From assembly GCA_964204605.1 (NCBI GenBank), contig OZ123195.1:280076-344075 (forward strand): a stretch of 64,000 bases of DNA. The letters run 5' to 3'. Under the pieces are notes generated by a model, which saw nothing but the letters and a program-made list of their open reading frames with translations, did no database searches and had not been told where the DNA came from. Below are positions 26,662-57,221 of the stretch, piece after piece. Numbering within the stretch: the stretch's first letter is position 1; every line of letters begins with the position of its first letter. The DNA is from Bacteroidota bacterium. GTDB taxonomy: Bacteria; Bacteroidota; Ignavibacteria; Kapaibacteriales; UBA961. The translations under genes and the position numbers were made by a program.

Positions 26662-29600
26662 TTATTTAAGGCTAATAACTTCTGTCCATTCTAAATTGCC
26701 AGACTTCAATCTTACATAATATATGCCGGTTGGAAGGCTAGACAGATTAAGTTGATGCTTATATATTCCATTGTCATTTGTAGCAAAAGGTATAGATATC
26801 ATATTCTGTCCTAATACTGATGTAATTGAAAGTATACCTTGTACAGAAGTATAATGCTGTAATGATAAGGTTATAATATCAGAAGCTGGATTTGGATATA
26901 TAACAAATGACTTTTTTGTTGTCCAATCTTGTAAAGACGTTGCTACTCTAAAGCCAAAAGATTGATTTTTGCATGAATTTATGTCTCCAATTTCAACAAC
27001 ATAGTTTCCAGTGCCATTTCTTTGGGTATATGTTAATGTTCTTGATGTAGCTCCTTGTATCAGAACACTGTCTTTGTACCATTGATATGTAATGGCATCA
27101 GTAATACATGTTAAAGTAGAATCATTTATTTTATCTATAATTGGCTGATAGGGGCGTTTATTGACTTTTACTGTAATTGAATCATATATAGTACATTGCA
27201 ATGCATCTTTTATTTCAATTTTGAATAAAGTGGTTGCATTAGGGCGCGCAATTGGAACTTGTTCGATTAAACTGCTCAAGCCACCACTGCTTGGTGTCCA
27301 CTTATATTTGTAAGGTGGTGTGCCACCTTTAATAATAAGCGGTAATTGAATAGAATCACCTTCACAAATTATAAATGAATCTGGCAATTCAGTGCTTAAT
27401 GCTGGATTGACAATTACATTAATCGTATCTTTTACTACGCAAAAACTTCCATCAATTACTGTGCATATATACGTAGTTGTTTTTGCTGGATTTGCTAATG
27501 GCCTTGCAATAGAAACCGAACTTAATCCTGCAACTGGTTCCCATGAATATTGATATGGTGGAAGGCCTCCAGAGACAATATTCCCAATTTCTTTTCCTGA
27601 AGACTCACATAAAACTATATCGGGTGCATAACCAAATTTAGTATTACAAGCCGCACCGGTTCTAAAATCTATTTCACCAGGAGTATTATAATTATTACAG
27701 AACCAACGGCTAAAGTGTTGTGTATTACCTTCGGCTAATTTATATTCAAATCTCATTCTCCATTTATAGGAAGAATTTACGGTAAGTGCGCTAATATTCT
27801 GAACGATATCTTTTAGGCCTTGGATATCTGTCCAAGTTGATGAAGTAACTGTATTTTTATTATTAAATGCTTGATTTAATGGTTTAACTTCTATAATTGG
27901 ACGTATAAATGTTCTTCCAGTGAATGGAAAATATGATGCACCAATATCTACAGAGCTTGAATTCTCGACTCGTAATGATGTAGTAATAGGAGAGTTAGTT
28001 CCTTTTTTATACTGCAATGTGCTACCTTTAGACCCAGTATTTCCATTGCCATAAAATATAGCAACCATGCCATTTTTGGGGTTAAAGCCGGAATCGTATG
28101 ATCTTGTAGAAACAGCTAAATCAGGGTAACCATCGCCATTTATATCTGCAATTGGAGCAATGCATGCGCCAGCGGTTTCTTGTATACCAGATGATTTATA
28201 TGTCCAAACCGGTAAAGCAGATAGACCATTCGAAGATCCAAGATACAGGCGTGATCTATGTGCATTTGCATTTGATGAATATAAGCCCGAGCCTACAACG
28301 ATATCCCCATATCCATCATTATTGATATCACCAATAGACCCAGCAGACTTTCCAAATTCTAATGCTGTGATGTCTCCCTCGGCTGTCCATATTGATTGCT
28401 TCGATGCACCTTTTGCAGACCCTAAAAATAGCTGGATTATTCCTTCATTTGTTTGGCCTTTATCATATAAAGTAGATGCAATTAATACATCTGAAAATCC
28501 ATCATTATTGATATCTCCAGCGGATGCTACATTAGCGCCAAATAATGCTTTATATTGATTCCCAGAGACAATCCATCCTGCAGAATCTGCTATTCCATTA
28601 GGAATGCCATAATGAATATAAACGCGCCCTTGATCATCTTGAGCTGAATTAACATCATATGATGGAGCTCCAATGATAATGTCATTTATGCCATCTCCAT
28701 TGATATCACCTGCCGAAGCAACTGATGCACCAAATTCTGATCCTGTTTGTGGGCCAATTTTAGACCAATAATTATTAGTATTCAAACCGTATTCGCTTCC
28801 AAACATTACATTCGCTTTACCTGCATTTTCTATAGTAGAAGAAAATCCTGGTTCACCTAAAACAATATCTGAATATCCATCTAGATTGATATCACCTGCA
28901 TAGCATAAAGAAAATCCAAATTTCCCACCAGCTTGTGAACCTGAGAACACAGTTTTTGCTTTTAGTTCTAAACCTGTTTTAGAGCCATAATAGACATAAA
29001 TTCTTCCAATATCTTGCTGTGATGAATTTGCATCATCAAAAAAAGGCGCACTAACAATTAAGTCAGCAAATCCATCTCCATTAAGATCTCCATTAGCTGC
29101 TATTGCATATCCAAAACCCGCTCCATTTTGATTTGGCCCAATCAATTCATTCTTTGCCACAATATCTATTCCAGATGCACTACCATAATGAATGGTTACT
29201 CTTCCTTGATCTGCAGATATGCCATCATAAAATGGCGATCCAACTGCAAAATCACCAAATCCATCACCATTAAAATCTGCTCTGCCGGAAACTGTCCATC
29301 CATATTCTTCATTATCTTGTGCTGCTTCTATTACTTGATTAGGGCTTATTGCAAAAAAGATTTGTTTGCCATAAGAAACGGTGATAGCACCTTCTTGTAA
29401 TTGACCATTTTTATAGTATGGTGCACCGGCACATATATCTGATATTCCGTCTCCATTAATATCGCCACATATACCAATTGAAGTCCCAAGTTTGGCTCCA
29501 GCCTGATCACTTTCAGAAAATAATTTGCCAGTGCTTAGTCCTGTTTGAGAACCATAATATGTGAACACAGCACCTTCTTGATTTTGCCCTGATGAAAATC

Positions 29601-32600
29601 CTGGGCATCCAGCAATCATATCTGATATACCATCTGCATTAAAATCTCCATAACCTGATAGAGATGTACCAAGTTTACTTCCATTAGTATTACTTTCGGT
29701 ATACCAAGATGGTATAAGGCTTAAGCCCTGTGTATTGCCATAAAATACATTGATAACACCTTCATTATTTTGTCCATTTGAAAAACTGGGTGCTCCAATT
29801 GCAATATCGGTGAAACCATCCATGTTTACATCGCCAATATTTGCTATTGCATAACCTAAATCACTATTATCATTAGAGATTGAATATCGCCAATTAACAG
29901 TATCAGATGGTTTAGTTTTTCTTCCAAAATAGCAGAAAACTCCACCTTCTGGGGCTATATCAGAATCACTATTATACGATGGAGCGCCAATAAATATATC
30001 ATTGTATGTATCAGCATTTATATCTGCAGAGGCAATAGTAGCACCAAATCTGCATCCAGAATTAGGGCCATAAGAAGTCCATAAAATAGAATCTGGGCCA
30101 ATTGGATTGCCTGAAAAAAGCATCACCATACCAACATTACCATTACTATTTGATGCACCAGGAGCACCAACCAGAATATCAGAAAAACCATCATTATTGA
30201 TATCTCCGGCACTTGCTACGCTTGCGCCAAGATTCGCTGCACTTTGATTTGATTCATATTGCCAAAAAGGAGAAGATGAGCTAATACCTTGGGCACTACC
30301 CAAGAAAATCATCAGTTTCCCTTCGGCATTTTGTCCATTAGAATAACCTGGGGCTCCAACAAGAATATCAGAATACCCATCGCCATTAATATCACCTGCA
30401 CTAGCTACAGATGCACCCATTCTGGCATTCATAGAATTGCTTTCATATATCCATGAAGGGGTAGAGCTAAAACCTGATGCACTACCAAGATAGACTTGTA
30501 TTCGCCCTTCGGATTGCTCACCGTTTTCATAATCAGGAGACCCCGCAATCATATCATCATAACCGTCGCCGTTGATATCGCCTGCAGGGGCTAATGAAGC
30601 ACCTAATTGCGCTAATGGAATATCAGTTTCTAAAACCTTATCTGATGAACTTAAAGAAGAGCTTATTCCATAATAAATGGAAACTTGACCTTCTTCTCTG
30701 AGATCATCATCATAGTATGGAGCTCCAATGCCAAAATCAGACTTTGTATCAAAATTAATATCACCTAGTCCAGAAACTGAAGTACCAAATTGAGCATCTG
30801 CTTGATTGCCTTCTGATGTCCACCCAGCATTTTGGCTAATTGACACTGTATTTCCGAAATAGAGATATGCTTTTCCTTCATCTAATTGTCCATTATCATA
30901 GAGTGGCGCGCCAATAATGAAATCTGCATTGCCATCATTATTTACATCACCAGCACAGGCAACACTTTGGCCATATCGTGCATTGGCTTGATTGCTTTCA
31001 TTTGTCCAAGCCGGATTAGTACTTAAACCATTAGATGTTCCATAAAAACAATATGCTCTACCTTCACTTTGTTCTCCATTTGAATAAAATGGAGCACCAA
31101 TAAGAACATCATTAAAACCGTCGCCATTCAGATCACTACATAAGGTAACAGAAGTTCCACATTCTGCATTAGCTTGATTAGATTCAAATTGCCATGCAGC
31201 ATTTGTGGAAAGTCCATTTGTAGATGAAAAATACACTCTAACGCAACCCTCATTTATATGCCCATTGTCATAAAAGGGGATTCCAATAAGTAAATCTGAT
31301 TTTGAATCTCCATTAATGTCCATACCACCTGAAATAGAAATACCCATTCTTGCATCAATCTGATTACTTTCTACCATCCATGGTGAAGTATTTGCAAGAG
31401 ATCCATTTCCACCAAAATAAACAAAAACAGCTCCTTCATCTAATGATCCATTATCATAATAAGGGGCAGAGATTGCGATGTCTAAAGTATCATCATTATT
31501 GGCTTTTCCTGCAGAACTTATGGCATATCCAAACCGCGCATTTGCTTGATTTGATTCTTTCATTATAGCTGGAGTACTAATGATTCCAGAAGAACTTCCT
31601 AAATATAAGAATGCTGCACCTTCATCTAATTGGCCATTATCATAACGAGGTGCACCAACCATGATATCATCATAACCATCTTTATTGATATCTCCAATTC
31701 CTGCAACAGAAAATCCAAACTCGGAATTAGCTTGTCCTGAAGATAGAACAATTTGAGGTTGTTTTTCTGGTCCATTTACTGATCCTAAAAAAACAAAAAC
31801 TGCTCCTTCATCTGTTTTTGCAATATCATATTTTGGCATACCTGCTGCAAAGTCACCGATATCATCACCATTTATATCGCCTAAAGGAGTTAAAACATAA
31901 CCAAAGAAAGCTTCAAATTGATTACCATCCATACTCCAATCTGGTGTAGCTGATAATGGATCTATCGTTATAGGATATACTGCTTGTTTATCATCAATAT
32001 GCAAAGCAATAGTGTTATTGTGCAAAGAAAATGATGCATCTAGTAATGTATTGTTGGCATCCCATACTTTTAAATCTTTATAGGTGATAACGATTTCAGA
32101 ACTATGTTTATCTATGAAGGCAATACCATCATTATTCATTAATAAAGGCTTTAATTCATCACTTTGTGTTTTAAGCTCAACAGTTAATGTTGAATCTCCC
32201 ATTGGTTGAGAATGCACAATAAAGTTTTGTCTTAAACCTTGTTTTGAATTTATATATTCGATAGTAAAATGTTCATTGCTGATATTCATCAAAGAGTCAT
32301 TGATATTTACATGTGGATTATCAGAGATCTTAAGGCTAATAGCACCTTTATGAATGCTTTGTAATTCTATGGTGTTTTTCCAAGTATTCTTGTCTAAACT
32401 TTGCAATGAAAATGAATAATCACAAAATTCAATTGCTACATGTTGAGTAGGATTCTTAGAAGTATAGGTATAAGAACTGGATTCGATTCCAAATTCAGAA
32501 TGATTGTTTTGGCTACATACAATGGATTTTTTTGATACAGTATCCATCAAATAACAAAAATCTATATCTAAAAAAGTTAAAGCTGAAACAGCGATAATGA

Positions 32601-32697
32601 GAGATAAAAACAATCCCTTATAAACAGTGCCTTTAAAGCCCATTTGTAGAGTCTCCGCATGAAAATGATAAATACTAAGAATAATGCTACTCTTCAA
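26662..32697 (-). CDS. Giant (2011 aa) secreted FG-GAP-repeat protein with SprB-like repeats and a T9SS C-terminal sorting domain
   Basis: Signal peptide. More than 20 tandem FG-GAP units (GDINGDGYDD / GDVNNDGNADFIIGAP). Two G[GT]xPPYxYxW SprB-type repeats near the C-terminus. Terminal FVIYPNPASDIITLSL...GIYYVRLKS...ISLK matches the T9SS type-A sorting domain (TIGR04183-like). Confidence 0.8.
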   Translation of the reverse strand: MKSSIILSIYHFHAETLQMGFKGTVYKGLFLSLIIAVSALTFLDIDFCYLMDTVSKKSIVCSQNNHSEFGIESSSYTYTSKNPTQHVAIEFCDYSFSLQSLDKNTWKNTIELQSIHKGAISLKISDNPHVNINDSLMNISNEHFTIEYINSKQGLRQNFIVHSQPMGDSTLTVELKTQSDELKPLLMNNDGIAFIDKHSSEIVITYKDLKVWDANNTLLDASFSLHNNTIALHIDDKQAVYPITIDPLSATPDWSMDGNQFEAFFGYVLTPLGDINGDDIGDFAAGMPKYDIAKTDEGAVFVFLGSVNGPEKQPQIVLSSGQANSEFGFSVAGIGDINKDGYDDIMVGAPRYDNGQLDEGAAFLYLGSSSGIISTPAIMKESNQANARFGYAISSAGKANNDDTLDIAISAPYYDNGSLDEGAVFVYFGGNGSLANTSPWMVESNQIDARMGISISGGMDINGDSKSDLLIGIPFYDNGHINEGCVRVYFSSTNGLSTNAAWQFESNQANAECGTSVTLCSDLNGDGFNDVLIGAPFYSNGEQSEGRAYCFYGTSNGLSTNPAWTNESNQANARYGQSVACAGDVNNDGNADFIIGAPLYDNGQLDEGKAYLYFGNTVSISQNAGWTSEGNQADAQFGTSVSGLGDINFDTKSDFGIGAPYYDDDLREEGQVSIYYGISSSLSSSDKVLETDIPLAQLGASLAPAGDINGDGYDDMIAGSPDYENGEQSEGRIQVYLGSASGFSSTPSWIYESNSMNARMGASVASAGDINGDGYSDILVGAPGYSNGQNAEGKLMIFLGSAQGISSSSPFWQYESNQSAANLGASVASAGDINNDGFSDILVGAPGASNSNGNVGMVMLFSGNPIGPDSILWTSYGPNSGCRFGATIASADINADTYNDIFIGAPSYNSDSDIAPEGGVFCYFGRKTKPSDTVNWRYSISNDNSDLGYAIANIGDVNMDGFTDIAIGAPSFSNGQNNEGVINVFYGNTQGLSLIPSWYTESNTNGSKLGTSLSGYGDFNADGISDMIAGCPGFSSGQNQEGAVFTYYGSQTGLSTGKLFSESDQAGAKLGTSIGICGDINGDGISDICAGAPYYKNGQLQEGAITVSYGKQIFFAISPNQVIEAAQDNEEYGWTVSGRADFNGDGFGDFAVGSPFYDGISADQGRVTIHYGSASGIDIVAKNELIGPNQNGAGFGYAIAANGDLNGDGFADLIVSAPFFDDANSSQQDIGRIYVYYGSKTGLELKAKTVFSGSQAGGKFGFSLCYAGDINLDGYSDIVLGEPGFSSTIENAGKANVMFGSEYGLNTNNYWSKIGPQTGSEFGASVASAGDINGDGINDIIIGAPSYDVNSAQDDQGRVYIHYGIPNGIADSAGWIVSGNQYKALFGANVASAGDINNDGFSDVLIASTLYDKGQTNEGIIQLFLGSAKGASKQSIWTAEGDITALEFGKSAGSIGDINNDGYGDIVVGSGLYSSNANAHRSRLYLGSSNGLSALPVWTYKSSGIQETAGACIAPIADINGDGYPDLAVSTRSYDSGFNPKNGMVAIFYGNGNTGSKGSTLQYKKGTNSPITTSLRVENSSSVDIGASYFPFTGRTFIRPIIEVKPLNQAFNNKNTVTSSTWTDIQGLKDIVQNISALTVNSSYKWRMRFEYKLAEGNTQHFSRWFCNNYNTPGEIDFRTGAACNTKFGYAPDIVLCESSGKEIGNIVSGGLPPYQYSWEPVAGLSSVSIARPLANPAKTTTYICTVIDGSFCVVKDTINVIVNPALSTELPDSFIICEGDSIQLPLIIKGGTPPYKYKWTPSSGGLSSLIEQVPIARPNATTLFKIEIKDALQCTIYDSITVKVNKRPYQPIIDKINDSTLTCITDAITYQWYKDSVLIQGATSRTLTYTQRNGTGNYVVEIGDINSCKNQSFGFRVATSLQDWTTKKSFVIYPNPASDIITLSLQHYTSVQGILSITSVLGQNMISIPFATNDNGIYKHQLNLSSLPTGIYYVRLKSGNLEWTEVISLK

Positions 32698-37246: not shown

Positions 37247-38224
37247 ATGATACATGTACAAAATTTAACAAAGGTATTCAAAAGTCATAAAAAAGAACCT
37301 GGAATTAAGGGGTCTATTACTTCATTATTTAAAAGAACATATACTGAATATATAGCTGCTGATTCAATCTCTTTCGACATTCAAGAAGGAGAATTAGTTG
37401 GTATGTTGGGATCTAATGGAGCGGGCAAAACAACTACTCTAAAAATGCTTTCAGGATTATTGCATCCAACCCGTGGACATGCAGAAGTGATGGGTTATGT
37501 TCCGTGGAAAAGGGATAATGAATTTAGAAGAAATTTCTCTTTGGTTATGGGACAAAGAAGTCAACTTTGGTGGGATTTACCAGCAGCAGATTCTTATTTG
37601 CTTAATAAAGAAATGTATTCTATTGCTAATTTTGATTATGCTAGTCGATTGAAGTATTTATCCGAAACATTAGGAATAGCCGATAAATTAACAGTTCAAG
37701 TAAGAAAATTATCCTTAGGCGAAAGGATGAAATGCGAACTTATCGGAGCGCTGCTCCATTTTCCAAAAGTTGTATATCTGGATGAACCAACTATTGGATT
37801 AGATATAGTAGCACAGCATGCATTAAGAGAATTTATTTCAGATTTTAATAAAAATAATGCCACGACTATTATTCTAACTAGCCATTATATGGATGATATA
37901 AAGGCACTTTGTAAAAGGGTATTACTTATTGATCAGGGTAAGCTAATATATGATGGTGAATTAAGTGGTCTTACTGATTCTTTTTCTGCAACTAAGATAC
38001 TGCACATAACTTTTGAAGAAAATGTTGAGTATCAACAGTTAATGATATTAGGAACAATTATAGAACATAAAGATGATTATGCTACAATACAAGTTGCAAA
38101 AGAAGATTTATCTGCATGCGCTACACATATTTTTACAAATTTTCAGGTTAGAGATATCACAATTGAAGATATTCCTGTTGACGAAATTATTAGGATGATT
38201 TTTTCAGGCAAAACAGGAATCTAA
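37247..38224 (+). CDS. ABC transporter ATP-binding protein (ABC-2/CcmA-like with C-terminal extension). No permease gene adjacent.
   Basis: Walker A GSNGAGKTT, signature LSLGERMK, Walker B VVYLDEPTIGLD. About 100-aa C-terminal extension. Confidence 0.85.
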   Translation: MIHVQNLTKVFKSHKKEPGIKGSITSLFKRTYTEYIAADSISFDIQEGELVGMLGSNGAGKTTTLKMLSGLLHPTRGHAEVMGYVPWKRDNEFRRNFSLVMGQRSQLWWDLPAADSYLLNKEMYSIANFDYASRLKYLSETLGIADKLTVQVRKLSLGERMKCELIGALLHFPKVVYLDEPTIGLDIVAQHALREFISDFNKNNATTIILTSHYMDDIKALCKRVLLIDQGKLIYDGELSGLTDSFSATKILHITFEENVEYQQLMILGTIIEHKDDYATIQVAKEDLSACATHIFTNFQVRDITIEDIPVDEIIRMIFSGKTGI

Positions 38225-38356
38225 TTATATGTGAGTATTATCTGCTCTTGAAAAAATAGGTTGGCTATGGCCTTCTCTTTGGCTATTTTACGCAACAATT
38301 TCTTCTCTGACTTATTTATCTTTTTTTGAAATCATAATATCTATTGGACTATATTT

Positions 38357-40687
38357 ATGCTTCTTAAAACAAGGCTATTTATGAAATATTTTGTATCTAT
38401 ATTATTATGTGTTTTTACTATCAATCTAGCTTTGGGGCAAGGTGCAAACAAAAGGCTTGTATTAATCGAGGAATTTACCAGTGCAACATGCGGTCCATGT
38501 GTAGATGCTGATAAAGTACTTAAAACCGTAGCTAATATTGATAGTGGTATTATAGCACTTAAATATCATTTGAATGTGCCATCACCTGGTGACCCATTTT
38601 ACAAAGCTAATCCGGCCCATAATGATAAGAGAGGGTCTTTATATTCAGTGCCTGCATTACCAGCAGCCAGAGTGAATGGTTATCGAAATGTAGACCCACG
38701 AGATGGAGCTGCAATGATTGCTGCTTCCAAAAATGATCAATCAATTCCTTATCCAATCTCTATGAAAGTTACCAATACTTCTGTTTCTGGTAATGAAATG
38801 AAAGCAATTATCGAGATTGAATCTGATATTGAGATTAATAATTTTATTCTTCATGCTGCAGTGTATGCAGAGGATGTAAAGCTGCCAGATTTACCCAAAA
38901 CATTAGCAAATTCTAATGGACAATCTGAATTTTCTTCTGCATTGTTATTGCTTTTGCCAAATGAAAATGGAACTGTTTGGAATAGCATAGCAAAAGAAAA
39001 GAAAAGTGTAGAACTTATGTATACAAAAGGCACAAGTGAAGTGTGGCAAGGCAATTCACACATTATTGCTTTTCTTCAAAATGCGAGTACTTTAGAAATC
39101 GTTCAAGCTGCAATAAGCTTGCCTAAACAGCCTGGGACAATGGTTTCTACTGGTATTACATATCCTCCAACAATAGCTCCTACTTTTTCTGTGATAGATC
39201 CAGATCAAAGTGTAGAAGTTAAAGCTGTTATTTCTAATTTATCGGCTTCAACTATTAATTATTCTAATCTTCAAATAGTTAAAAGTGCAAGAACGCCAGC
39301 AGATTGGATATTATCTGTTAATGGGGCAAGCCCTAGTTTTACTTTATTGGCCGGCCAGACAAAAGAATTTACTGTAAAATTACAAAGAACTGCAACTACA
39401 GGTATTGGCGAAGCTGTTCTGACTTTTGGCGAAGCTGGAAATAGCAAAACCTATGTTTCTACACCAATTACTATTGTTTCCAAAGAATCTGAAGCTTTCT
39501 TAATCCAAGACAATAATAGCGGTTCTTCGGCACCATTCGAACAGGCAATTTCTAAGGTAGGTGTCAAAAAGTTTATTCCTCTATCAACAAAAGAGTTCAT
39601 ACAAAACTTTACTCGTTTTACATCTTTAAAAAGGGTGTTATGGCATTGTGCTGATAGCGGCAAGATTGATAGGTCTGAGTCAGATTTTATCCTTGGATTG
39701 ATGAATCGTGGTATTTCTTTTTTAATTAGTGGACATCTTCTTACAAATAATATGTTTTTTGATGGTGTTGCTTTATTAGATACAATCGGAGTTTCTTATG
39801 CTGGATTTCAGCTTAAGAATACTGATTTTACCATTACTGGTATGAATGCTGATACTATAAGCGATGGATTTAAAGAGGATTGCATTAAAAGAAATTATGC
39901 CTTATTCCCCATGAAGTTTAATACGAAAACAGCTTTTGGAACTATACCTTTATTACGATATGGAAATGGGCCAGCAGATACATTGGTTGGCGTAAGAACC
40001 CAAAAAATGAGAAATAGAATTGTTTACTTTGGATTTAATCCCTTAGTTATCCAAAATGAAATAAGCAGAAATGCACTTGTCAATAAATCTCTTACCTGGA
40101 TTGAAAATTTTACATATACTCCCCAAGCGAGTGTAAAAGCTAGCGCAACTTCTTTGTCTTTTGGTACTTTAACAACAGTTAATACAAAAACTAGTTCTTT
40201 AAGTGTAAAGAATATTGGGGATGCATCATGCACTATTGAATCAGCAGAGATTAGCGGAAATGATAAATCTGATTTTTCTGTAATATCAAAGAAAATACCT
40301 TTAAATGCTGGTGATTCTACAATTATATCTGTTGATTTTGCTCCTAAAATCGCTGGAGACAAATCTGCTACACTTACTATTACATTTAGTAAAGGGTTGA
40401 ATCCAATAGTAGTTTCTTTGTCCGGTAATTTTATACCTAGTTCTATTCATGAAATGTATGAACAACTAGGAATTAAACTTAGTGTGATTGGAAATTCAAT
40501 TGAAATAGCGAATCAAAATCAACGTATCTATAAAGTTGTACTATCTGATATTCATGGCAATGCAATACACACATTAGATTGTCCTCAGGGCAATTTATTG
40601 ATTAACAATATAGTGAATGGATTTTATGTGGTTTCTATTATGAACTCAGATACTATCTATTCTATACCATTAATTATTACTTATTAA
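38357..40687 (+). CDS. Secreted 776-aa protein with N-terminal thioredoxin-like CGPC motif, Ig-like (ASH/choice-of-anchor-D-like) domain and a T9SS-type C-terminal tail
   Basis: Signal peptide. LVLIEEFTSATCGPCV parallels thioredoxin VLVDFWAEWCGPCK. The segment SLSFGTLTTVNTKTSSLSVKNIGDASCTIESAEISGN...STIISVDFAPKIAGDKSATLTITF resembles ASH / choice-of-anchor-D. The beta-rich C-terminus ...FYVVSIMNSDTIYSIPLIITY looks like a T9SS tail. Confidence 0.5.
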   Translation: MLLKTRLFMKYFVSILLCVFTINLALGQGANKRLVLIEEFTSATCGPCVDADKVLKTVANIDSGIIALKYHLNVPSPGDPFYKANPAHNDKRGSLYSVPALPAARVNGYRNVDPRDGAAMIAASKNDQSIPYPISMKVTNTSVSGNEMKAIIEIESDIEINNFILHAAVYAEDVKLPDLPKTLANSNGQSEFSSALLLLLPNENGTVWNSIAKEKKSVELMYTKGTSEVWQGNSHIIAFLQNASTLEIVQAAISLPKQPGTMVSTGITYPPTIAPTFSVIDPDQSVEVKAVISNLSASTINYSNLQIVKSARTPADWILSVNGASPSFTLLAGQTKEFTVKLQRTATTGIGEAVLTFGEAGNSKTYVSTPITIVSKESEAFLIQDNNSGSSAPFEQAISKVGVKKFIPLSTKEFIQNFTRFTSLKRVLWHCADSGKIDRSESDFILGLMNRGISFLISGHLLTNNMFFDGVALLDTIGVSYAGFQLKNTDFTITGMNADTISDGFKEDCIKRNYALFPMKFNTKTAFGTIPLLRYGNGPADTLVGVRTQKMRNRIVYFGFNPLVIQNEISRNALVNKSLTWIENFTYTPQASVKASATSLSFGTLTTVNTKTSSLSVKNIGDASCTIESAEISGNDKSDFSVISKKIPLNAGDSTIISVDFAPKIAGDKSATLTITFSKGLNPIVVSLSGNFIPSSIHEMYEQLGIKLSVIGNSIEIANQNQRIYKVVLSDIHGNAIHTLDCPQGNLLINNIVNGFYVVSIMNSDTIYSIPLIITY

Positions 40688-40706
40688 ATAGTTCTGGATT
40701 ATACCA

Positions 40707-43013
40707 ATGAAAAAACTGTTCCTGTTTTTCTTTATTTCCGTAATGATAATATCATCTATAATGCATAGCCCTAAAATATATGCTAAAAGAGGGGATACAA
40801 CTTCAGTAAAATTATTTGATAAGTATTTATGGACTTATTATGGTAGCCAGAGTAGATGGGGAGTGTTCCCAAGTGCAGATAAGAAATTTGAACGCATCAT
40901 GATGCATTTTATTCTTACATGTCCCACTGGTGGATGCGGTGAATGGGATTATACAATGAAAGTAATGGCTAGAAATCATACAGGGAAATTAGACTCAAAT
41001 CTTGTAGATGCTCCGTCATTCACAATTGGTGGTGGTGCAAGAGATACCTTGAAAGTTAGTAGCATGCAAACATTTAAGACAAAGTTTAATGCTACAGCTA
41101 AAAAAACTGATACAATCTTAAATTCTCCAATCACAATTTCATTCTATAAAAATAATGCTAGCCCATTTACTGTTTCGGATACACAACAAGTGTATGAAGC
41201 AGAATATTGGAATTATTATTATTCTTCTACAGGCGCAAAATCAGATTCACTATTTGTACAGTCTGATTTACTGTTTACAAAAGGAAATAGAAAAGCATTC
41301 AAGCCTTTCGAAATAGTTCTAGAGACAGAGATAGCTAGATTTATCACTCCTTATGGCAAATGGTTTCCAAAAGATTGGTCATATTCATGGGATTATGATG
41401 TTACAGATTATGCACATATGCTAACAGATTCTACTGAAATACGAGTAATATATGATGGATATTCTCAAGGATCATTATTTACGCTTACTTTTGATATGTT
41501 AGAAGGAATACCAGCAAGAGAAACCTATAAAAGCCAAGTACTGTGGTCTGGAAACCCTACATATGGTGATCCTAATAATCCAATAAGCAATTTTTTAACT
41601 CCTAAAACTATGCCTTCATTAAACAAAGAAGATATGGTTACATTGCGCTTAATGACAACTGGTCATGGATTTGGTGGGACAGAAAATGCAGCCGAATTTT
41701 CTGAAAAGACACATATGATTGCAATCAATGGACAAGATTTGTATGAACAGCATCTATGGCGTCCAGATTGCGGGCAAAATCCTGTTTATCCACAAGCAGG
41801 TACTTGGTATTTCCCAAGGGGTGGCTGGTGCCCAGGCGATGTAGTTCAATATTGGGATTATAATCTAACAGAGCATTTTTCAAAAAGTGATTCTGTACAG
41901 ATTGGCTATAATATGGTAGAATACACAAATGATGATCTTGGAAAAAGAGCTAGCTATATTCTAGAAGGACAAATCCTGTATTCAAAAGCTAATTATATAA
42001 ATAATGCTTCTTTGGAAGAAATTAAAACTCCTAATAATGCATATAAGTATCGGAGAATGAATCCAATTTGTAGGGGACAACAGCCTTTAATAGTTGTTAA
42101 AAACAATGGAAAAGCAGATTTAACTTCACTAGTTATACGTTATAAAGTAGATAATGAAGCTGAAAATGTGTTCAATTGGAAAGGTACTATACCTTATATG
42201 AATACTGCAGAGATTTTATTGCCAGCTTTAGAGTTTCCTAAAGTAGGTGATCATAAGTTTACTGTTGGTGTATATGAACCAAACGGTAAAGCAGATGAAT
42301 CTACTATTGGTGATATGATGACGGTGAATTTTACAAATGGAAAAACTGTCAATAATTCCAAAATTATTCTTACAATCACATTTGATTATGTGCAAGGATA
42401 TAATAATTCTATTCGTTATCAAATAGTAGACAATGAAGGCTATGTAATTAAAGAAAAAGATGGATTTGTAGACAAATCAACAATCAGAGATACCACCACA
42501 TTAGAGGATGGATGTTATAGATTTATCATCTATGAAGAAGGTATTGGAGATGGTTTATTTCCTATTTATTCAGGTTCAACCAGAGGATCTTTTAGTTTAA
42601 AAGATAGTAAGAATACTATGATATACAATACTGCATCTTCTCTTTTTGGTCAACCAGCTGGTGTATATGCTAGTTTTGGTGATAGAGAAATTATAACATT
42701 TCAAGTGAATACAGCTTCAGCTTCTACTGAAGAAGAAATTGTATCTGCTATTGTTCCTGAACTTAGAGTATCGCCAAATCCATTGGTAAATGGCAATGGC
42801 TTCTTAACTGTAAAAGGCCTTCAACATTCTAGTTCTGTTAATGTAAAAATACTATCTCCACTTGGAAGAGAGCTTTATTCACAGATTATCACAGCTGGTG
42901 AAGCGGAGCATTTTCCATTAGATTTGCATGGCTTTGCTTCAGGAAGTTATCAAGTGCAAATATCTCAAGGATCCTTTGTATTAACAGAATCATTGGTCCA
43001 TTTAGCACAATAA
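40707..43013 (+). CDS. PNGase F-like peptide-N4-(N-acetyl-beta-glucosaminyl)asparagine amidase with an about 130-aa insertion and a T9SS C-terminal sorting domain
   Basis: Collinear with Elizabethkingia PNGase F. FDKxxxxxx...CPxxxCxEWD, then RFITPY...DVTD, then the catalytic C-domain TGHGFGGTENAAEFSEKTHMIAINGQ...CGQNPVYPQAGTWYFPRGGWCPGDVV. C-terminus ...VSPNPLVNG...GSYQVQISQGSFVLTESL is T9SS-tail like. Confidence 0.65.
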   Translation: MKKLFLFFFISVMIISSIMHSPKIYAKRGDTTSVKLFDKYLWTYYGSQSRWGVFPSADKKFERIMMHFILTCPTGGCGEWDYTMKVMARNHTGKLDSNLVDAPSFTIGGGARDTLKVSSMQTFKTKFNATAKKTDTILNSPITISFYKNNASPFTVSDTQQVYEAEYWNYYYSSTGAKSDSLFVQSDLLFTKGNRKAFKPFEIVLETEIARFITPYGKWFPKDWSYSWDYDVTDYAHMLTDSTEIRVIYDGYSQGSLFTLTFDMLEGIPARETYKSQVLWSGNPTYGDPNNPISNFLTPKTMPSLNKEDMVTLRLMTTGHGFGGTENAAEFSEKTHMIAINGQDLYEQHLWRPDCGQNPVYPQAGTWYFPRGGWCPGDVVQYWDYNLTEHFSKSDSVQIGYNMVEYTNDDLGKRASYILEGQILYSKANYINNASLEEIKTPNNAYKYRRMNPICRGQQPLIVVKNNGKADLTSLVIRYKVDNEAENVFNWKGTIPYMNTAEILLPALEFPKVGDHKFTVGVYEPNGKADESTIGDMMTVNFTNGKTVNNSKIILTITFDYVQGYNNSIRYQIVDNEGYVIKEKDGFVDKSTIRDTTTLEDGCYRFIIYEEGIGDGLFPIYSGSTRGSFSLKDSKNTMIYNTASSLFGQPAGVYASFGDREIITFQVNTASASTEEEIVSAIVPELRVSPNPLVNGNGFLTVKGLQHSSSVNVKILSPLGRELYSQIITAGEAEHFPLDLHGFASGSYQVQISQGSFVLTESLVHLAQ

Positions 43014-43048
43014 ATAAATAATCATTATTCATCACAATTGGTATTTCA

Positions 43049-44530
43049 ATGAAAATTTCAATATTAAATACTGGGCTTTCTTCTCAAAAAGCAGATGTGG
43101 TTGCGGTATTTAGCTATGAAGATGAAAAACTTCTAGCTTTCGTAAAAAAAGACCTTACGAGTCAATTCCCTTCGGCTTCTGCAACTCTTCAAAGTGAAGA
43201 TTTTAATGGTAAAGCTAAATCTGCGATAACATTATATACTGGTGTTAAATCAATGCCAAGAATCATGCTTATTGGTTTAGGAAAAAAAGATTCATTAACA
43301 ATTGAATCACTTAGAAAAGCTGGTGCAGTAGCTGCAAAAAGAGCAGCAGCTTGTAAAGCAGAAACATTATCAATTCATGCAATGGATTGTGATGGAATTT
43401 CAGCTGCAGATAGTTCGCTTGCATTGATAGAAGGTGCAATGTTAACTAATTATCGTTTTGATAAATATATAACAATTGATAAAGAAAAGAAGAAGCTATC
43501 AACATTCACTTTATTTACTGAGTCTAAAAAAACAGCTGCAGCTGCAAAAGGCATCGTCAATTATGCATCCGCTATGTATGAGGGTGTTACATTGGCTAGA
43601 AATCTTGCAAATGCACCAAATAATGAAATTTATCCTGAAACATTAGCTAAAACTGCTTTGTCTGTGGGTAAATCTGCTGATATTAAAGTTACAATTCTCG
43701 ATAAAAAGAAAATTCAAAGCTTAAAAATGGGTGGTTTATTAGCTGTAAATCAAGGTAGTGTAAGGCCTCCAGTATTTATTGTCATGGAATATAAAGGTGG
43801 TAAATCAACCGATAAGCCATTCGTAATTGTTGGCAAAGGCATTACATTCGATACAGGTGGAATTTCTATAAAACCAGCTGGTGGAATGGGTGATATGAAA
43901 ATGGATATGCATGGTGCTGCAAGTGCAATTGGTGCTATTGTAGCAATTGCAAAAGCGAAACTTCCCATTAATGTAACTACACTGGTGCCTTCTACAGAGA
44001 ATATGCCTAGTGGTTCAGCTTATGTGCCTGGAGATATCATTACATTTATGAATGGTAAAACAGCGGAAATTGATAATACTGATGCCGAAGGAAGACTTAT
44101 TCTTGCAGATGCATTGACATATGCATCTAAATTCAATCCGGTAGCAGTAATTGATTTAGCAACTTTAACTGGTGCTTGTGTTGTTGCTCTTGGTGGAGTG
44201 ACAACTGGTTTAATGGGTACCGATGAATTGTTAAAGTCTAGAATTAAGAAAGCAGCTGAACGTACGAATGAATATGTATGCGAATTACCGCTATATGAAG
44301 AATATGAAGAGTTAATTAAGAGTGATGTTGCAGATGTAAAGAATTCTGGTGGACGTGGCGCTGGAACGATTACAGCAGCCTTGTTCTTAAAACACTTTAT
44401 CGGCGATTATCCTTGGGCCCATTTAGATATAGCAGGAACTGGTATGTCTACTAAAGATACTGATTATATGCCTAAAGGCGGAACAGGTGTCGGAGTTAGA
44501 CTACTTTTAGATATTGCAAAAAATTGGTAA
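43049..44530 (+). CDS. pepA: Leucyl aminopeptidase (M17 family)
   Basis: M17 signature NTDAEGRLILADAL, GKGITFDTGGISIKP, and the metal ligands. Confidence 0.88.
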   Translation: MKISILNTGLSSQKADVVAVFSYEDEKLLAFVKKDLTSQFPSASATLQSEDFNGKAKSAITLYTGVKSMPRIMLIGLGKKDSLTIESLRKAGAVAAKRAAACKAETLSIHAMDCDGISAADSSLALIEGAMLTNYRFDKYITIDKEKKKLSTFTLFTESKKTAAAAKGIVNYASAMYEGVTLARNLANAPNNEIYPETLAKTALSVGKSADIKVTILDKKKIQSLKMGGLLAVNQGSVRPPVFIVMEYKGGKSTDKPFVIVGKGITFDTGGISIKPAGGMGDMKMDMHGAASAIGAIVAIAKAKLPINVTTLVPSTENMPSGSAYVPGDIITFMNGKTAEIDNTDAEGRLILADALTYASKFNPVAVIDLATLTGACVVALGGVTTGLMGTDELLKSRIKKAAERTNEYVCELPLYEEYEELIKSDVADVKNSGGRGAGTITAALFLKHFIGDYPWAHLDIAGTGMSTKDTDYMPKGGTGVGVRLLLDIAKNW

Positions 44531-44620: not shown

Positions 44621-45505
44621 TTATAGAGAGAATCTTAAATCAGCACCAATTTGAAGAGCACTAACTGTCCAATTATCACCGGTATTCACTTTAGTTAATC
44701 CTAAATTATAATATACAGCAGGTACAAACAATAAAGAACCAGCTAGGATTTCATATTGAGCACCAAATTTTAAACCCAAACGGAATGGGCTTTTGTCAAT
44801 AATATCGCCTGAATATAGACGTATTGAAGTTTTTGTATCATCAGCATATTCTGGCTTATAACCATTCTTACCTGCAATAGAATTATCAGATAATTGTAAT
44901 GAACCAGGAAGTGTTGGTGCAACAAATTGAACTGGATTTGATGGATCAAAAGCTAATTCAAATCGTTGTTCTTGTGTGCCACCCATTGGAATACCAAATT
45001 GTGGGCCAGCTGTTAATCCAAGCATTGTACCAGGTAAGTTAAAACGATACATCACTTCCATGTTTAACAGTGAATATTTAACTACTGTAACATGATTAAC
45101 TGAGGATTCTACAACTTGACTAGATGAAGAAGAACCTAATAATTTTGATGGATATTTATCACCATCTACAGAAAAACTTGCAGGCTGATAATCATATACT
45201 ACTCTTGCAATGATTGAAGAATTTGCATTCTTAGGATCGCCTAATAAGTATTCACCGGACAAACCAAAATAATAACCATTATCTGTTCCGGTTTCGAAAG
45301 TAGGACATTGCACATCGCCAACGATAGAAGCAAAGCCACCTGTATGCATAGACTTATTGTAACCAAAAACAGGCCCAACAAGGATAGGAGATTTTTTACC
45401 ACTTGGCTTACGAGGGTCAGCTGCTTGTGAAAAAACATCCGTTGAAAAGAAAAAAGTGAGAGCCACTAGGGCAATAAACAGTCGCTGAAGATGCATGAGG
45501 TTCAC
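44621..45505 (-). CDS. Outer-membrane beta-barrel protein (porin-like), hypothetical
   Basis: Signal peptide, alternating hydrophobic beta-strand pattern, C-terminal ...GADLRFSL. Confidence 0.45.
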   Translation of the reverse strand: MNLMHLQRLFIALVALTFFFSTDVFSQAADPRKPSGKKSPILVGPVFGYNKSMHTGGFASIVGDVQCPTFETGTDNGYYFGLSGEYLLGDPKNANSSIIARVVYDYQPASFSVDGDKYPSKLLGSSSSSQVVESSVNHVTVVKYSLLNMEVMYRFNLPGTMLGLTAGPQFGIPMGGTQEQRFELAFDPSNPVQFVAPTLPGSLQLSDNSIAGKNGYKPEYADDTKTSIRLYSGDIIDKSPFRLGLKFGAQYEILAGSLLFVPAVYYNLGLTKVNTGDNWTVSALQIGADLRFSL

Positions 45506-45777: not shown

Positions 45778-48700
45778 TCAATCAAAATTAATTAAAGATT
45801 GTGTGAAAGATTTTCCAAGTGCTTGAAATATAAGAATATAACTTCCGGGCAACAATGATGATTTATCAATTTGTACTTGATGTAACCCTTTGCTTCCTTT
45901 AGCAGAATAATGCATTTTTTCATTACCTAGTATGTCTAATAATTGAATGGAATATTCACATTCTTTTGATAACAGGAAAGAAACAGTAGAATTATAATCT
46001 AATGGATGTGGTCCAACACCTAGTAATCCAAAACCTGAATTTGCTGCTCCTATTATTCTCATATCATAAGCACATACTTTTTCCATCATTATTGGATAAG
46101 AAGTAGTATCAACAGTAAAACAGTCATTACTAGGATTGATTAAACGAATTGTTATCGTTCCTACACTGTCAGTTAAATATGTATCAAAGTCTAATTCAGT
46201 ATGCCAAGTGCCGCTTCCATCTAAAATTAACTCTGTACCTGATTCTATTAATACTGTTGATTGACTTACAGGAATAATGTCAGCAGGTAATTTTATTTCT
46301 CCTGAAATACCATTGAAGTATAAAATTGAAGATTTATTGATACATGTTACAGCTTTCGCTGGATATTCAAGGAGTAATTTGGGCTTAAATTGTACAGATG
46401 AAGTTACGGGGGCATCATAAGATCCAGTGATGCTTAGTTTCATCTGCTCGCCAGGAAAATACGATATAGGCTGAATTGACTTATTAGTAAATGAAATCTT
46501 ATTTTCTATAGATAGTAAAGAAACATTTGTTTTCAGCTGGATTGAATCATTGACAATAGCTGTAAACTGAATGATATCACTTCCAATTTTAGTAAAAGTA
46601 ACATTGAAAAAATAGGTTAAAAATCCATTGTTGGCTGGAATAGTTAATGGGAATTGCTGATTAACTCTTTTAATTACAGAAATACTATCTTTTAATGATT
46701 GAAAATCTATACTTTTTACATAAACATCACGATTGCCTTTATTCATGATGGTTATGCCAATAACTCTTTCTGTGCACACTCTTGTTCTTACTGAACCAGT
46801 ATTGGATATATCTATTTTTATGGTGTCTATTGATACAGCATTACCCCAAATCTCTGCTATACTCATAGTTTTCTTATAAGCTGGCAGGGCATCATGATAG
46901 ATTGCTAGTTTGATGCTATGTTTACCAATTCTTTTTGGATTAAATGTTATGGGAATAGAATATGCTGTCCCATAATTAATTATCTGATTTTTTAAATATG
47001 TTGGGTCGATACTAAAAGAAGAAATATCTCCGCTTACTATTATGATTGAATCGACAGAAAGTGATTCATTACCATATGTTTTAAACAAAACACAATTTGA
47101 ATCTTTAGTTTGACCTTCTACTATTGTGCCTAGATATGTATCATTTACACGTATAAAAGGTTGTGTACCTATTCCATGTAATTCAATCGTTTGTTTCCCT
47201 GTAACAAATCCATTAGTAAACTGTATAGCTCCAAAGCCCGAATAGGCAATAGTATCTAGTGGAGTAAATGTTAAAGAAATTAATATAGAGTCATATGGAT
47301 TTACATTAATAGATGGTACATTATTAGGTAATTCAACGTGAAAAATATTTTGATCAAATCCGGAGCTGTCTATAGTTATAATTGCTTTGTCAGATCCTGT
47401 ATTGTATATAGTTACAATAGCATTATTTACTGTTTGTGTCCTTTTCTTTTTCCAATCGTATATTATCCCTGTTATACGTGGTGTAATTCCTTTACCGAGT
47501 ACAAATGCTTGATTATCTATATTCTGAGTGTTGATTACGGTAACACTTTCCTGATAGTTAACTGTATCTGAAGGATAAAAATGACATGGTAATATCAGTG
47601 AATCATTAGGAGTAAGAGAAAAAGGAAATATAGTAGATGTATCTATTACAAATGTACTGTTAGATTTTTGTGTATAATTCAATTGTAACAGTTGTACAGA
47701 TTTTTTGCCTGTATTTATAATTGTAATATTACCTTTTCTACTACTATCTTTAACACTTACTTTCCCAAAATCATGTCCTTCAATCAACAGAGATTGTTTA
47801 TATATCGATCCCTTAATTGGAATAGTAATCATGGTTTTACATTGTGTCTCTAGATAGAGAAAAGCTGATACATCAGATGTATCAGGATTTGCTTTGAAAC
47901 ATATAGTGATTGTCCTGGTATTACCTGGAGCAATACATTCATCAAAAAGAGGTAATCCTTTTTCTGCAAATGATAATCTGTTGTCTCCCATCATTGAAGC
48001 TTGAAGAAAACATACAGTATCTAATCCAAAATTTTTAATTGTATAATCAATACAAATAGAATCGCCACTTGCTATTTCTTTGAACTGAATGGTATCAGAC
48101 ATAATAAGAGATAAGGCAGAATATGTATGAACATATATCGTTTTATTTCCAGCATTATCTATAGCTTCTAATGTAATTTTTGCATTTCTTTTGGCATCAA
48201 TTGGGTTCGCTGTAAAACTACCTGACATAGAATTATCAAAAATTCGAGAAATATTCCAATTATAATTATATGTGCTATCTTCAATGATATTGATATCATA
48301 TAATCCAGAATAATCGTTAAGTAATACTTCTTCTATTTCACCTTGTAATTTGCCACATTCTTCTTTTATGTTAATTCGTGGAGATAATGTGTCAATCCCT
48401 TTTGACAATGCAAATCCCAAAGGATATCCATAGGCATCATCAGAACCCAGACCATAAAGAGAACAAGCAAAATTACCTTCACTAGAAGATAGTTTGTGAG
48501 TTCCTGGTGAAACAGGTAAAGCTACATAAAATAGGGTAGTACCAGAAATTCTTTGTTGTTTTAATTCAGTAGTTATAGAGCTAATATAATTGTTGTCTAA
48601 CATGATATAATCAACGGCATCTTCGCTACAAATTACATTTATAAAATGCCTGTTAAATTGATTTGGATTTGTAGGAGGATTATACATCACATGGAAAAGT

Positions 48701-49830
48701 GCCTCTTTGACAAATGATTCTAACGAAGGCAAGATAATCATGCATGGGTCATATGTTTGGGAATTTGGGTCTGATGAATAGCTTGTACTCATATATTGAG
48801 CCACGCTGATTGGTTTATCAGCTTGGATTAATAAAGGTTCTCTGATAAAATTGAGTGTAGTAAAATCTCCAGGATTATTTAGCGTATACGAATTAGTACC
48901 ACCAGAGCCTTTCGCTTGCACAGTGGTATTAGATTGTAGGCACATAATTCTGAAAAAGTCTCCATTGCTACCATTTTTAAATGGCATCGTAGGGTATTGC
49001 TTACCCCATATTGATGTAGGTTGGAGCATTTCTATTAAATGATTTTTGCTGTCAAAATCATTTAATCCTATAGGTATTGCTGTTCTTACATGTCCGCCAA
49101 AAACTCCTATTGGCTTATCCGAACGAATAATTGTACCGCTTAAATCTCCTTGTCCTTTAGGAAGTGTATCAGATTTTACTAAGTAGCAATCTCCTTTATT
49201 AAGAAGAATATACGTAGAGATATTTTTTCCAATACCATTCCAAGTAGCAGATTTTGGAGCAAATTCTATTGTAGTTTGATCTTCTGATGCTATAATCATG
49301 AATTCACTTGTTCTGGGAACTTTAGCATCAATTGGATGAGGTGTCATATAGATATCATTCGGCCAAGAATGCACTATATATTCAAGGCCCCATTTATGAA
49401 CAGGTATTGCTGAATATCCATCTGTTGTTAAAGATTGACTACTTAATCCGCTTACTGTGATTGGCTCATCAGAAATTATCTCAACTGCCTGCCTTAATGC
49501 AATTTCAGATCTAATCATTTCTATTGATGGAAAATACAATGGAAATTGTATAACTGAATCTGCAGGAATTTTGATTGTTGTTCTGGCAGTGCCATAAGGA
49601 GAAGCTATAGATACGGTAGCATTTTTATGTGAAGAAATAAATAAGTTAAGTGCTACGCCACCAGGAGCTAAATAGATTTCATTTTGCATAAAACCCAATA
49701 AGAAATACCTTCCTCCCAAACCAGATTGTTTAGATTGTATTTCATTATATCTATCATTACTATGTGCACTAAACACATTGCTAAGCATTACTGCAATCAA
49801 ACAGATAAAGATATGTATAGTGGTCTTCAA
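45778..49830 (-). CDS. Large (1350 aa) secreted multi-Ig-like adhesin-type protein with IgGFc-binding-like N-domain and T9SS C-terminal sorting domain
   Basis: Signal peptide. N-terminal GGRYFLLGFMQNEIYL... resembles the IgGFc-binding N-domain seen on gliding/T9SS proteins. Long beta-rich repeats. C-terminus ...LLPGSYILIFQALGKSFTQSLINFD is T9SS-tail like. Confidence 0.6.
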   Translation of the reverse strand: MKTTIHIFICLIAVMLSNVFSAHSNDRYNEIQSKQSGLGGRYFLLGFMQNEIYLAPGGVALNLFISSHKNATVSIASPYGTARTTIKIPADSVIQFPLYFPSIEMIRSEIALRQAVEIISDEPITVSGLSSQSLTTDGYSAIPVHKWGLEYIVHSWPNDIYMTPHPIDAKVPRTSEFMIIASEDQTTIEFAPKSATWNGIGKNISTYILLNKGDCYLVKSDTLPKGQGDLSGTIIRSDKPIGVFGGHVRTAIPIGLNDFDSKNHLIEMLQPTSIWGKQYPTMPFKNGSNGDFFRIMCLQSNTTVQAKGSGGTNSYTLNNPGDFTTLNFIREPLLIQADKPISVAQYMSTSYSSDPNSQTYDPCMIILPSLESFVKEALFHVMYNPPTNPNQFNRHFINVICSEDAVDYIMLDNNYISSITTELKQQRISGTTLFYVALPVSPGTHKLSSSEGNFACSLYGLGSDDAYGYPLGFALSKGIDTLSPRINIKEECGKLQGEIEEVLLNDYSGLYDINIIEDSTYNYNWNISRIFDNSMSGSFTANPIDAKRNAKITLEAIDNAGNKTIYVHTYSALSLIMSDTIQFKEIASGDSICIDYTIKNFGLDTVCFLQASMMGDNRLSFAEKGLPLFDECIAPGNTRTITICFKANPDTSDVSAFLYLETQCKTMITIPIKGSIYKQSLLIEGHDFGKVSVKDSSRKGNITIINTGKKSVQLLQLNYTQKSNSTFVIDTSTIFPFSLTPNDSLILPCHFYPSDTVNYQESVTVINTQNIDNQAFVLGKGITPRITGIIYDWKKKRTQTVNNAIVTIYNTGSDKAIITIDSSGFDQNIFHVELPNNVPSINVNPYDSILISLTFTPLDTIAYSGFGAIQFTNGFVTGKQTIELHGIGTQPFIRVNDTYLGTIVEGQTKDSNCVLFKTYGNESLSVDSIIIVSGDISSFSIDPTYLKNQIINYGTAYSIPITFNPKRIGKHSIKLAIYHDALPAYKKTMSIAEIWGNAVSIDTIKIDISNTGSVRTRVCTERVIGITIMNKGNRDVYVKSIDFQSLKDSISVIKRVNQQFPLTIPANNGFLTYFFNVTFTKIGSDIIQFTAIVNDSIQLKTNVSLLSIENKISFTNKSIQPISYFPGEQMKLSITGSYDAPVTSSVQFKPKLLLEYPAKAVTCINKSSILYFNGISGEIKLPADIIPVSQSTVLIESGTELILDGSGTWHTELDFDTYLTDSVGTITIRLINPSNDCFTVDTTSYPIMMEKVCAYDMRIIGAANSGFGLLGVGPHPLDYNSTVSFLLSKECEYSIQLLDILGNEKMHYSAKGSKGLHQVQIDKSSLLPGSYILIFQALGKSFTQSLINFD

Positions 49831-56088: not shown

Positions 56089-56127
56089 GTATTATTCTCT
56101 AAAAATCTGCTTTGTATACTCTGTTAA

Positions 56128-57189: not shown

Positions 57190-57221
57190 CTATTACCTGT
57201 ATTCAATTAGCTGTTAAATAA

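Follow-up and report, generated by a model that had tools for sequence, protein, structure and literature searches.

A predicted type IX-secreted PNGase F-superfamily protein among unrelated neighbours in a Kapaibacteriales chromosome

We analysed a 64,000-nt stretch of contig OZ123195.1 from a Kapaibacteriales bacterium (hereafter the window; all positions are window coordinates), focusing on four genes on its + strand. They encode an ATP-binding cassette (ABC) ATPase, a protein with a thioredoxin-type motif, a protein related to peptide-N-glycosidase F (PNGase F), and a leucyl aminopeptidase (Table 1). The initial annotation of this DNA had described four consecutive same-strand genes. All four open reading frames (ORFs) were recovered in that arrangement, along with every motif that had been quoted from them, and the gaps between them measure 132, 19, and 35 bp, in order. 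Housekeeping genes flank the interval on both sides, among them Ogg, PolA, DnaJ, SurE, M16 peptidases, complex I, and tRNA synthetases. Across 22.3 kb the DNA shares 95.2% identity with a 'Bacteroidota bacterium Deming_bin.385' contig, and it is 91% identical to 'Candidatus Kapaibacterium sp. MYJ.27'. Kapaibacterium is currently classed within the phylum Bacteroidota, so cargo of type IX secretion systems (T9SS) is to be expected in this lineage.

The 768-aa product of the third gene belongs to the PNGase F superfamily (Pfam clan CL0612). The N-glycanase_C profile (PF09113) matches residues 308-404 well above its cutoff (E 1.1e-18, 67.9 bits vs 25), while the N-glycanase_N profile (PF09112) gives a weak, sub-threshold match (E 0.028). 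The N-domain nevertheless aligns to PNGase F by family profile (5.7e-5) and by structure. A single-sequence search of the PDB sequences with the protein found PNGase F at 3e-18, aligning residues 28-92 and 208-424, and a profile of 33 family members matched PNGase F at 1.2e-42 with both domains covered. The protein has the double jelly-roll fold of the superfamily, and its nearest structural neighbours are all PNGases. Homology to both domains of PNGase F, as first proposed, is thus supported by Pfam, PDB sequence, profile, and structure matches, even though only one of the two Pfam profiles suggested as a check exceeds its cutoff. An exact-sequence look-up returned no existing record for this protein, and close homologues already carry the NCBI name 'peptide-N-glycosidase F-related protein.'

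The double jelly roll is followed by further domains. Residues 431-670 matched no Pfam family and structurally resemble CARDB/FN3-like sandwiches. The T9SS tail that had been recognised by eye holds up, as the TIGR04183 Por_Secre_tail profile scores 25.0 bits against a cutoff of 23 and the tail structurally matches solved T9SS C-terminal domains (CTDs).

Table 1. Genes of the four-gene interval and domains of their two predicted secreted products
Feature	Location	Strand	Description
ABC ATPase gene	37247-38224	+	325 aa; cytoplasmic ATP-binding subunit, ABC-2-type transporter (DrrA/COG4586-like)
Thioredoxin-fold protein gene	38357-40687	+	776 aa; predicted secreted multidomain surface protein with C45-G-P-C48
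PNGase-like gene	40707-43013	+	768 aa; predicted T9SS-secreted PNGase F-superfamily protein
Aminopeptidase gene	43049-44530	+	493 aa; cytosolic M17 leucyl aminopeptidase, PepA-type
Signal peptide	768-aa protein, aa 1-26
N-terminal jelly roll	768-aa protein, aa 27-92 + 208-300		Split by beta-rich insertion, aa ~93-207
N-domain insertion site	40983-41327	+	aa 93-207 of the 768-aa protein, after catalytic Asp
C-terminal jelly roll	768-aa protein, aa ~300-430
Two immunoglobulin (Ig)/CARDB-like beta-domains	768-aa protein, aa ~431-670
T9SS type-A CTD	768-aa protein, aa ~685-768
Signal peptide	776-aa protein		Likely true start M9 at 38381
Omp28/HBP35-like thioredoxin-fold domain	776-aa protein, aa ~33-130		C45-G-P-C48
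Beta-sandwich	776-aa protein, aa 134-253
Ig-like domain	776-aa protein, aa 265-375
Alpha/beta domain	776-aa protein, aa 380-583
Choice-of-anchor-D Ig domain	776-aa protein, aa 586-692		NF012200, 53 bits vs cutoff 45
Probable T9SS-type CTD	776-aa protein, aa 706-776

Residue equivalences between PNGase F and the 768-aa protein were read from HMMER alignments. Both catalytic carboxylates are kept (D60 = D81 and E206 = E330), as are Y85 (Y216), R248 (R371), and W251 (W374). They lie in or among the motifs C72-P-x3-C77-G-E-W-D81, R211-F-I-T-P-Y216, D231-V-T-D234, G319-H-G-F-G-G, A329-E330-F331, and C355-G-Q-N-P...G365-T-W-Y-F-P-R371-G-G-W374-C-P-G, the last three in the C-domain. D60 and E206 are essential for catalysis by PNGase F (10.1101/2025.07.17.665090; PMC12753239), and mutating the catalytic Asp or Glu of zebrafish Ngly2 abolished all activity (PMC12753239). 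The PNGase F disulfides C51-C56 and C231-C252 are retained as C72-C77 and C355-C375. At least 253 of 256 family representatives keep E330, R371, W374, C355, and C375, and H320 and F331 are near-invariant over 256 relatives. All 138 relatives whose N-terminus could be aligned have D81, and 254 of 254 have E330. Because hmmalign left the N-terminal halves of insertion-less relatives unaligned, the WD[YR] motif was counted by regular expression.

Other positions differ from those of PNGase F (type I, Elizabethkingia meningoseptica; 1PNG/1PNF/1PGS), in which Arg61 is a chitobiose-binding residue. R61, E118, W120, W191, and W207 are replaced by Y82, D250, Y252, H320, and F331, so that the type-I chitobiose-binding set Arg61/Trp120/Trp191/Trp207 is represented by Y82/Y252/H320/F331. 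This loss sets the protein apart from the type-I enzyme and not from the superfamily. The expectation that the catalytic Asp, Glu, and Arg would all be conserved holds for the two acids and fails for Arg61. PNGase activity has been demonstrated for BF0811 and Ngly2 (PMC9522356; PMC12753239), which in the family alignments show 'TGHG...DEF' (BF0811) and 'WDH', 'TGHG', and 'GEF' (Ngly2). The His, the Phe, and a non-Arg residue at the Arg61 position (His in Ngly2) all occur in these proven enzymes, so their presence here does not speak against activity. The group-1 Bacteroides PNGases, whose behaviour resembles that of PNGase F, have Asp at the Glu118 position as their signature (PMC9522356), and Asp250 predicts a type-I-like specificity in which core alpha-1,3-fucose is not tolerated. 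Genuine PNGase activity seems a reasonably good bet for the 768-aa protein, with most of the remaining doubt falling on an altered substrate.

The initial annotation had also pointed out an insertion of about 130 aa, and the spacing between the WD and RxITPY motifs, 128 aa here vs 18 aa in PNGase F, agrees with it. A beta-rich insertion of ~110 aa lies between strands after the D60 position; PNGase F lacks it, and also lacks a CTD, whereas the 768-aa protein has ~340 extra C-terminal residues made up of the Ig/CARDB-like domains and the T9SS CTD. In the structural model, a small beta-rich module is enclosed by two long strands (83-103 and 194-213), and its position relative to the active-site cleft was inferred from the secondary-structure strings of the model. 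The site holds ~125 residues in 117 cluster representatives and ~530 residues, including a LamG domain (PF13385), in 28 representatives with proteins of ~1140 aa. The commonest architecture in the family is a full-length orthologue of 740-770 aa with insertion and CTD. The loop after the catalytic Asp is an insertion hot spot among PNGase homologues (P0070, P0080-P0084, and others), and earlier work described variable insertions that follow the F strands in jelly rolls of the PNGase F family (PMC8812541). BF0811 (Bacteroides group-1, 3KS7) and Ngly2 (9LWG) are far more distant in sequence (E 5e-5 to 5e-4 in the single-sequence search). BF0811 lacks a CTD and its small insert is a different one, and Ngly2, a lysosomal, acid-active acid PNGase, carries thioredoxin-like (Tx-like) and PA domains.

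PNGase F-type N-glycanases had been described as rare outside Elizabethkingia and Flavobacteriia, a view that did not survive our searches. In a scan of one genome per species, more than 590 loci encode relatives of the PNGase-like protein, spanning Kapaibacteria, Ignavibacteria-like bins, Flavobacteriales, Chitinophagales, Bacteroidales, Saprospiraceae, and others. Among 1.84 billion cluster representatives, 1,410 clusters (50% identity) matched at E<=1e-3 and 432 at E<=1e-30. The enzyme family is common in Bacteroidota and already named in the database.

Taking these data with the gene context described below, we read the interval as an ordinary, vertically inherited stretch of Kapaibacteriaceae chromosome with four functionally independent genes, in which the 768-aa protein is a T9SS-secreted N-glycan amidase; we assign this reading a probability of about 0.68. 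In the mechanism that we propose, the protein would be exported through Sec, lose its signal peptide, and fold in the periplasm, where the disulfides C72-C77 and C355-C375 would form. The T9SS would then recognise its CTD, leading to surface attachment or release. D81 and E330 would hydrolyse the GlcNAc-Asn amide bond (GlcNAc, N-acetylglucosamine) of N-glycans on extracellular glycoproteins or glycopeptides, freeing the glycan and converting Asn to Asp. The 110-aa insertion and the Ig/CARDB-like domains may act as accessory substrate-binding or spacer modules.

Several observations weigh against this reading. No T9SS machinery genes were recognised within the 64-kb window, and no glycoside hydrolases, SusC/D, or peptidases accompany the PNGase-like gene. 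The C204-C208 disulfide of PNGase F is missing. The Arg61 position is Tyr in 206 of the 212 relatives that bear the motif (regular-expression count), and the Glu118 equivalent varies within the family (D in 21, S in 8, E in 2, G in 1, and Y in 1 of the sequences in alignment A1). The subfamily defined by the WDY motif and the insertion is known but biochemically uncharacterised. Finally, gaps of only 19 and 35 bp would allow the thioredoxin-fold, PNGase-like, and aminopeptidase genes to be co-transcribed.

The likeliest alternative is that the 768-aa protein keeps the fold without being an N-glycan amidase, and either acts on a different amide or glycoconjugate, such as N-glycans of bacteria or archaea or the cell's own surface glycoproteins, or serves as a carbohydrate-binding adhesin. 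The replacement of Arg61 by Tyr throughout the subfamily would fit such a change, as would a large insertion directly after the catalytic Asp, including the ~530-aa LamG-containing version in 28 representatives, and the position of the gene alone amid housekeeping genes and not in polysaccharide-utilisation loci. A bacterial substrate has a precedent in Cytophaga hutchinsonii, where the CTDs of T9SS cargo carry PNGase F-sensitive N-glycans (PMC11611037). Against this alternative, both catalytic carboxylates, R371, W374, and Y216 are strictly invariant, which points to a chitobiose-type site and a conserved amidase chemistry; proven PNGases also show the H, F, and non-Arg substitutions (PMC9522356; PMC12753239); and the closest structural neighbours are PNGases without exception. 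On balance we consider it unlikely.

A more specific and far more speculative proposal, to which we give little credence, is that the ~750-aa T9SS-secreted 'WDY' subfamily is a surface editor of bacterial GlcNAc-Asn glycoproteins, not a forager of eukaryotic N-glycans, with the insertion as a dedicated substrate-recognition module. By analogy with C. hutchinsonii, its substrates may be N-glycans on T9SS cargo CTDs. The subfamily is conserved as a stand-alone gene amid housekeeping genes in hundreds of Bacteroidota species.

The initial annotation had anticipated a notable nutritional or interaction trait for the lineage. As the gene has no glycoside hydrolases, SusC/D, or peptidases alongside it, context lends no support to a nutritional role, and the family is too widespread for the trait to stand out. 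The locus indicates no unusual lineage-specific trait, new secretion arrangement, or new gene cluster. If active, the protein would be one more secreted N-glycan amidase, in an environmental Bacteroidota lineage; since the WDY/insertion subfamily is large and uncharacterised, its use would lie mainly in its being a candidate glyco-analytical enzyme.

The four genes are unrelated neighbours whose adjacency is coincidental. Nine window proteins were searched by tblastn against 85 related loci, and the order ABC ATPase, thioredoxin-fold protein, PNGase, and aminopeptidase was confined to the clade with PNGases at least 57% identical, in which everything from PolA to DnaJ is collinear. About 75 more distant PNGase loci have no thioredoxin-fold protein or ABC ATPase within 10 kb, and an M17 peptidase lies within 10 kb of the PNGase gene in three incidental cases among them. 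Conversely, five independent contexts of thioredoxin-fold protein homologues and the contexts of distant ABC orthologues contain no PNGase gene. We rejected a functional operon or island on these grounds, as no linkage is conserved beyond the collinear clade in any of these contexts. Guilt by association gave no lead for the PNGase family either. When 1,095 neighbouring ORFs from 80 PNGase loci were clustered, no glycan-utilisation genes emerged, be they glycoside hydrolases or SusC/D, and the recurrent neighbours were housekeeping genes (IspG, PurT, and OmpA-like) reflecting lineage synteny. Promoter and terminator consensus scans did no better than on shuffled sequence and so do not inform operon structure.

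These data bear directly on the idea of a deglycosylation-proteolysis module, in which the thioredoxin-fold protein would reduce or unfold disulfide-rich glycoproteins, the PNGase strip their N-glycans, the aminopeptidase trim the peptides, and the ABC ATPase energise uptake. The genes share a strand with gaps of 19 and 35 bp, and five related species-level genomes have them in the same order. Such a partnership would suit PNGase F-type enzymes, which perform best when their substrates are denatured or reduced. One distant homologue of the thioredoxin-fold protein adjoins an alpha-mannosidase of glycoside hydrolase family 38 (GH38), and in Ngly2 a Tx-like domain is joined to the PNGase domain (PMC12753239), although this Tx-like domain serves dimerisation. 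We nevertheless find the module improbable. The linkage occurs only where the entire 20-kb region is collinear and is absent from the distant loci, viewed from either partner; the aminopeptidase and ABC ATPase are cytoplasmic and lack signal peptides; and a response-regulator gene is inserted between the PNGase and aminopeptidase genes of one close relative. Nor do the data support any functional tie to the leucyl aminopeptidase, a cytosolic housekeeping enzyme. The 19-bp spacing of a thioredoxin-fold gene upstream of a PNGase gene recalls the fusion of thioredoxin-like and PNGase F-type domains in Ngly2 (9LWG; PMC12753239), but this pairing of genes is not kept beyond the close clade, so the resemblance is probably coincidence.

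The interval had first been labelled a T9SS cargo island. A horizontally acquired cargo island is very improbable: it has in its favour only the adjacency of two T9SS cargo genes, while GC content at the locus (0.33-0.34) equals that of the flanks, GC and skew match the rest of the window, scans of the window found no tRNA genes, Rfam matches, notable repeats, integrase, or transposase, and the housekeeping flanks (PolA, Ogg, DnaJ, and SurE) are collinear and in conserved order in relatives. At least two further genes in the window resemble T9SS cargo. One, at 26662-32697 (-), encodes a 2011-aa FG-GAP-repeat protein with a PF18962 Por_Secre_tail (4.4e-11), and the other, at 45778-49830 (-), encodes a 1350-aa secreted protein with an IgGFc_binding match (2e-53), choice-of-anchor-D Ig domains, and a CTD-like tail. 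With at least 3-4 T9SS-type cargo genes in 64 kb, it is unremarkable to find two of them side by side. IgGFc_binding proteins recur near the examined homologues in other Kapaibacteria contigs (L001, L004, L086, and L089), which suggests a lineage-expanded surface-protein family.

The 776-aa protein encoded upstream of the PNGase-like gene had been noted for a CGPC motif thought to lie in a thioredoxin-like fold, and modelling agrees. Its AlphaFold model (predicted local distance difference test, pLDDT, 79.8) has the thioredoxin topology beta-alpha-beta-alpha-beta-beta-alpha, formed by strands 35-41, 65-71, 103-106, and 110-112 and helices 47-58, 80-95, and 117-128 in the order E35-41, H47-58, E65-71, H80-95, E103-106, E110-112, H117-128. 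C45 and C48 sit at the N-terminus of helix 47-58. Foldseek matched the protein to HBP35 (5y1a) with E 7e-12 and a template modelling (TM) score of 0.58. The motif IEEFTSATCxPC is invariant in the family, and CxPC is kept in 21 of 21 homologues. By sequence, the N-terminus fell below the cutoffs of curated families: DUF1223 scored 22.7 bits vs 30.7 (E 1.2e-4) and Omp28 15 vs 34.9 (0.022), and the protein scored 19 vs 150 for NF033782 and 23 vs 200 for NF045500. Weak profile matches were obtained to 2axo (0.0022) and thioredoxin 1fo5 (0.035), and a weak match to an Omp28-related selenoprotein family (3.6e-5) is consistent with a redox role, given what is generally known of selenoproteins.

The T9SS tail of the 776-aa protein is less clear than that of its neighbour. 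While the 768-aa protein exceeds the Por_Secre_tail cutoff, the 776-aa protein on its own sequence gives only E 0.039, and its assignment draws on the homologues P0137, P0144, and P0151, which carry PF18962 and align through the tail, and on a terminal beta-sandwich at residues 706-774 of the model. The homologue family is small (31 matches), and some members carry PF11551 and PF18962. The second Met (M9, 38381) is the probable start of translation, since this is where homologues begin in the alignment. Positions 38326-38355 hold a promoter-like TTGAAA-18-TATATT.

HBP35 of Porphyromonas gingivalis (5Y1A) offers a close parallel in layout, with a signal peptide, an N-terminal thioredoxin-type CxxC domain (C48/C51, compared with C45/C48 here), and a T9SS CTD, which is probable in the 776-aa protein. 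The two differ in that no significant sequence similarity was detected between them, and the 776-aa protein is more than twice as long, with extra Ig-like, alpha/beta, and choice-of-anchor-D domains. The T9SS cargo HBP35 reduces insulin in vitro, an activity abolished by mutating both cysteines (PMC2907840). It provides a precedent for secreting a thioredoxin-fold protein as T9SS cargo. The N-domain of the 776-aa protein most likely serves at the cell surface as a thiol-disulfide redox or binding module carried on Ig-like spacers. Elsewhere, a distant homologue (L092, 4887-10445) follows genes for a TlpA-like thiol-disulfide oxidoreductase, a DUF6029 protein, and Omp28, which fits a redox/Omp28 module, and another (L090, 5467-10427) follows the GH38 alpha-mannosidase mentioned above.

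The 325-aa protein is an ABC ATPase (PF00005 ABC_tran, 3.3e-23) that falls below the drrA cutoff (191.7 vs 312). It had been observed to lack a permease partner, and this is true of the whole window: no permease was found in the 37 kb upstream or the 26 kb downstream of the gene, and every ORF with multiple transmembrane (TM) segments is accounted for (acyltransferase, NuoL/M/N/H, DUF420, and RDD). The suggested likeness to the gliding-motility ATPase GldA was rejected, as TIGR03522 scores 160.4 bits against a cutoff of 402.6. It belongs to a tight group of orthologues, 52-67% identical, found in several FCB phyla (Kapaibacteria, Ignavibacteria, Chlorobi, and Calditrichota). The Calditrichota orthologue (52% identical) lies directly upstream of a PF06182 ABC2_membrane_6 permease, not GldF, while in another Kapaibacterium contig and a Chloroherpetonaceae contig the orthologue is solitary among unrelated neighbours. 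The protein shares with ABC-2 ATPases (DrrA/YbhF-like, COG4586 type) the Walker/ABC signature domain and a C-terminal extension; those ATPases pair with ABC2_membrane_6 permeases, whereas this gene has none nearby. The simplest reading of these matches is an unlinked ATPase of an ordinary ABC-2 transporter, whose permease genes would lie elsewhere in the genome.

The 493-aa M17 aminopeptidase is a cytosolic housekeeping enzyme. It is full-length, has no signal peptide, and matches PF00883 (4.6e-124), PF02789 (5.6e-20), and NF002083 (546.4 bits vs cutoff 468).

Complex I genes occur in the window as two distant groups of opposite orientation, at 3931-9943 (+) and 55591-58985 (-); NuoL/M/N-like genes have a DUF420 gene between them, and NuoG/H/I-like genes lie ~46 kb away. 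Just downstream of the aminopeptidase gene, 44621-45505 (-) encodes a 294-aa protein that carries a signal peptide and matched nothing in Pfam or NCBIfam. It is 71-74% identical in the related clade and, from its sequence, looks like an outer-membrane beta-barrel.

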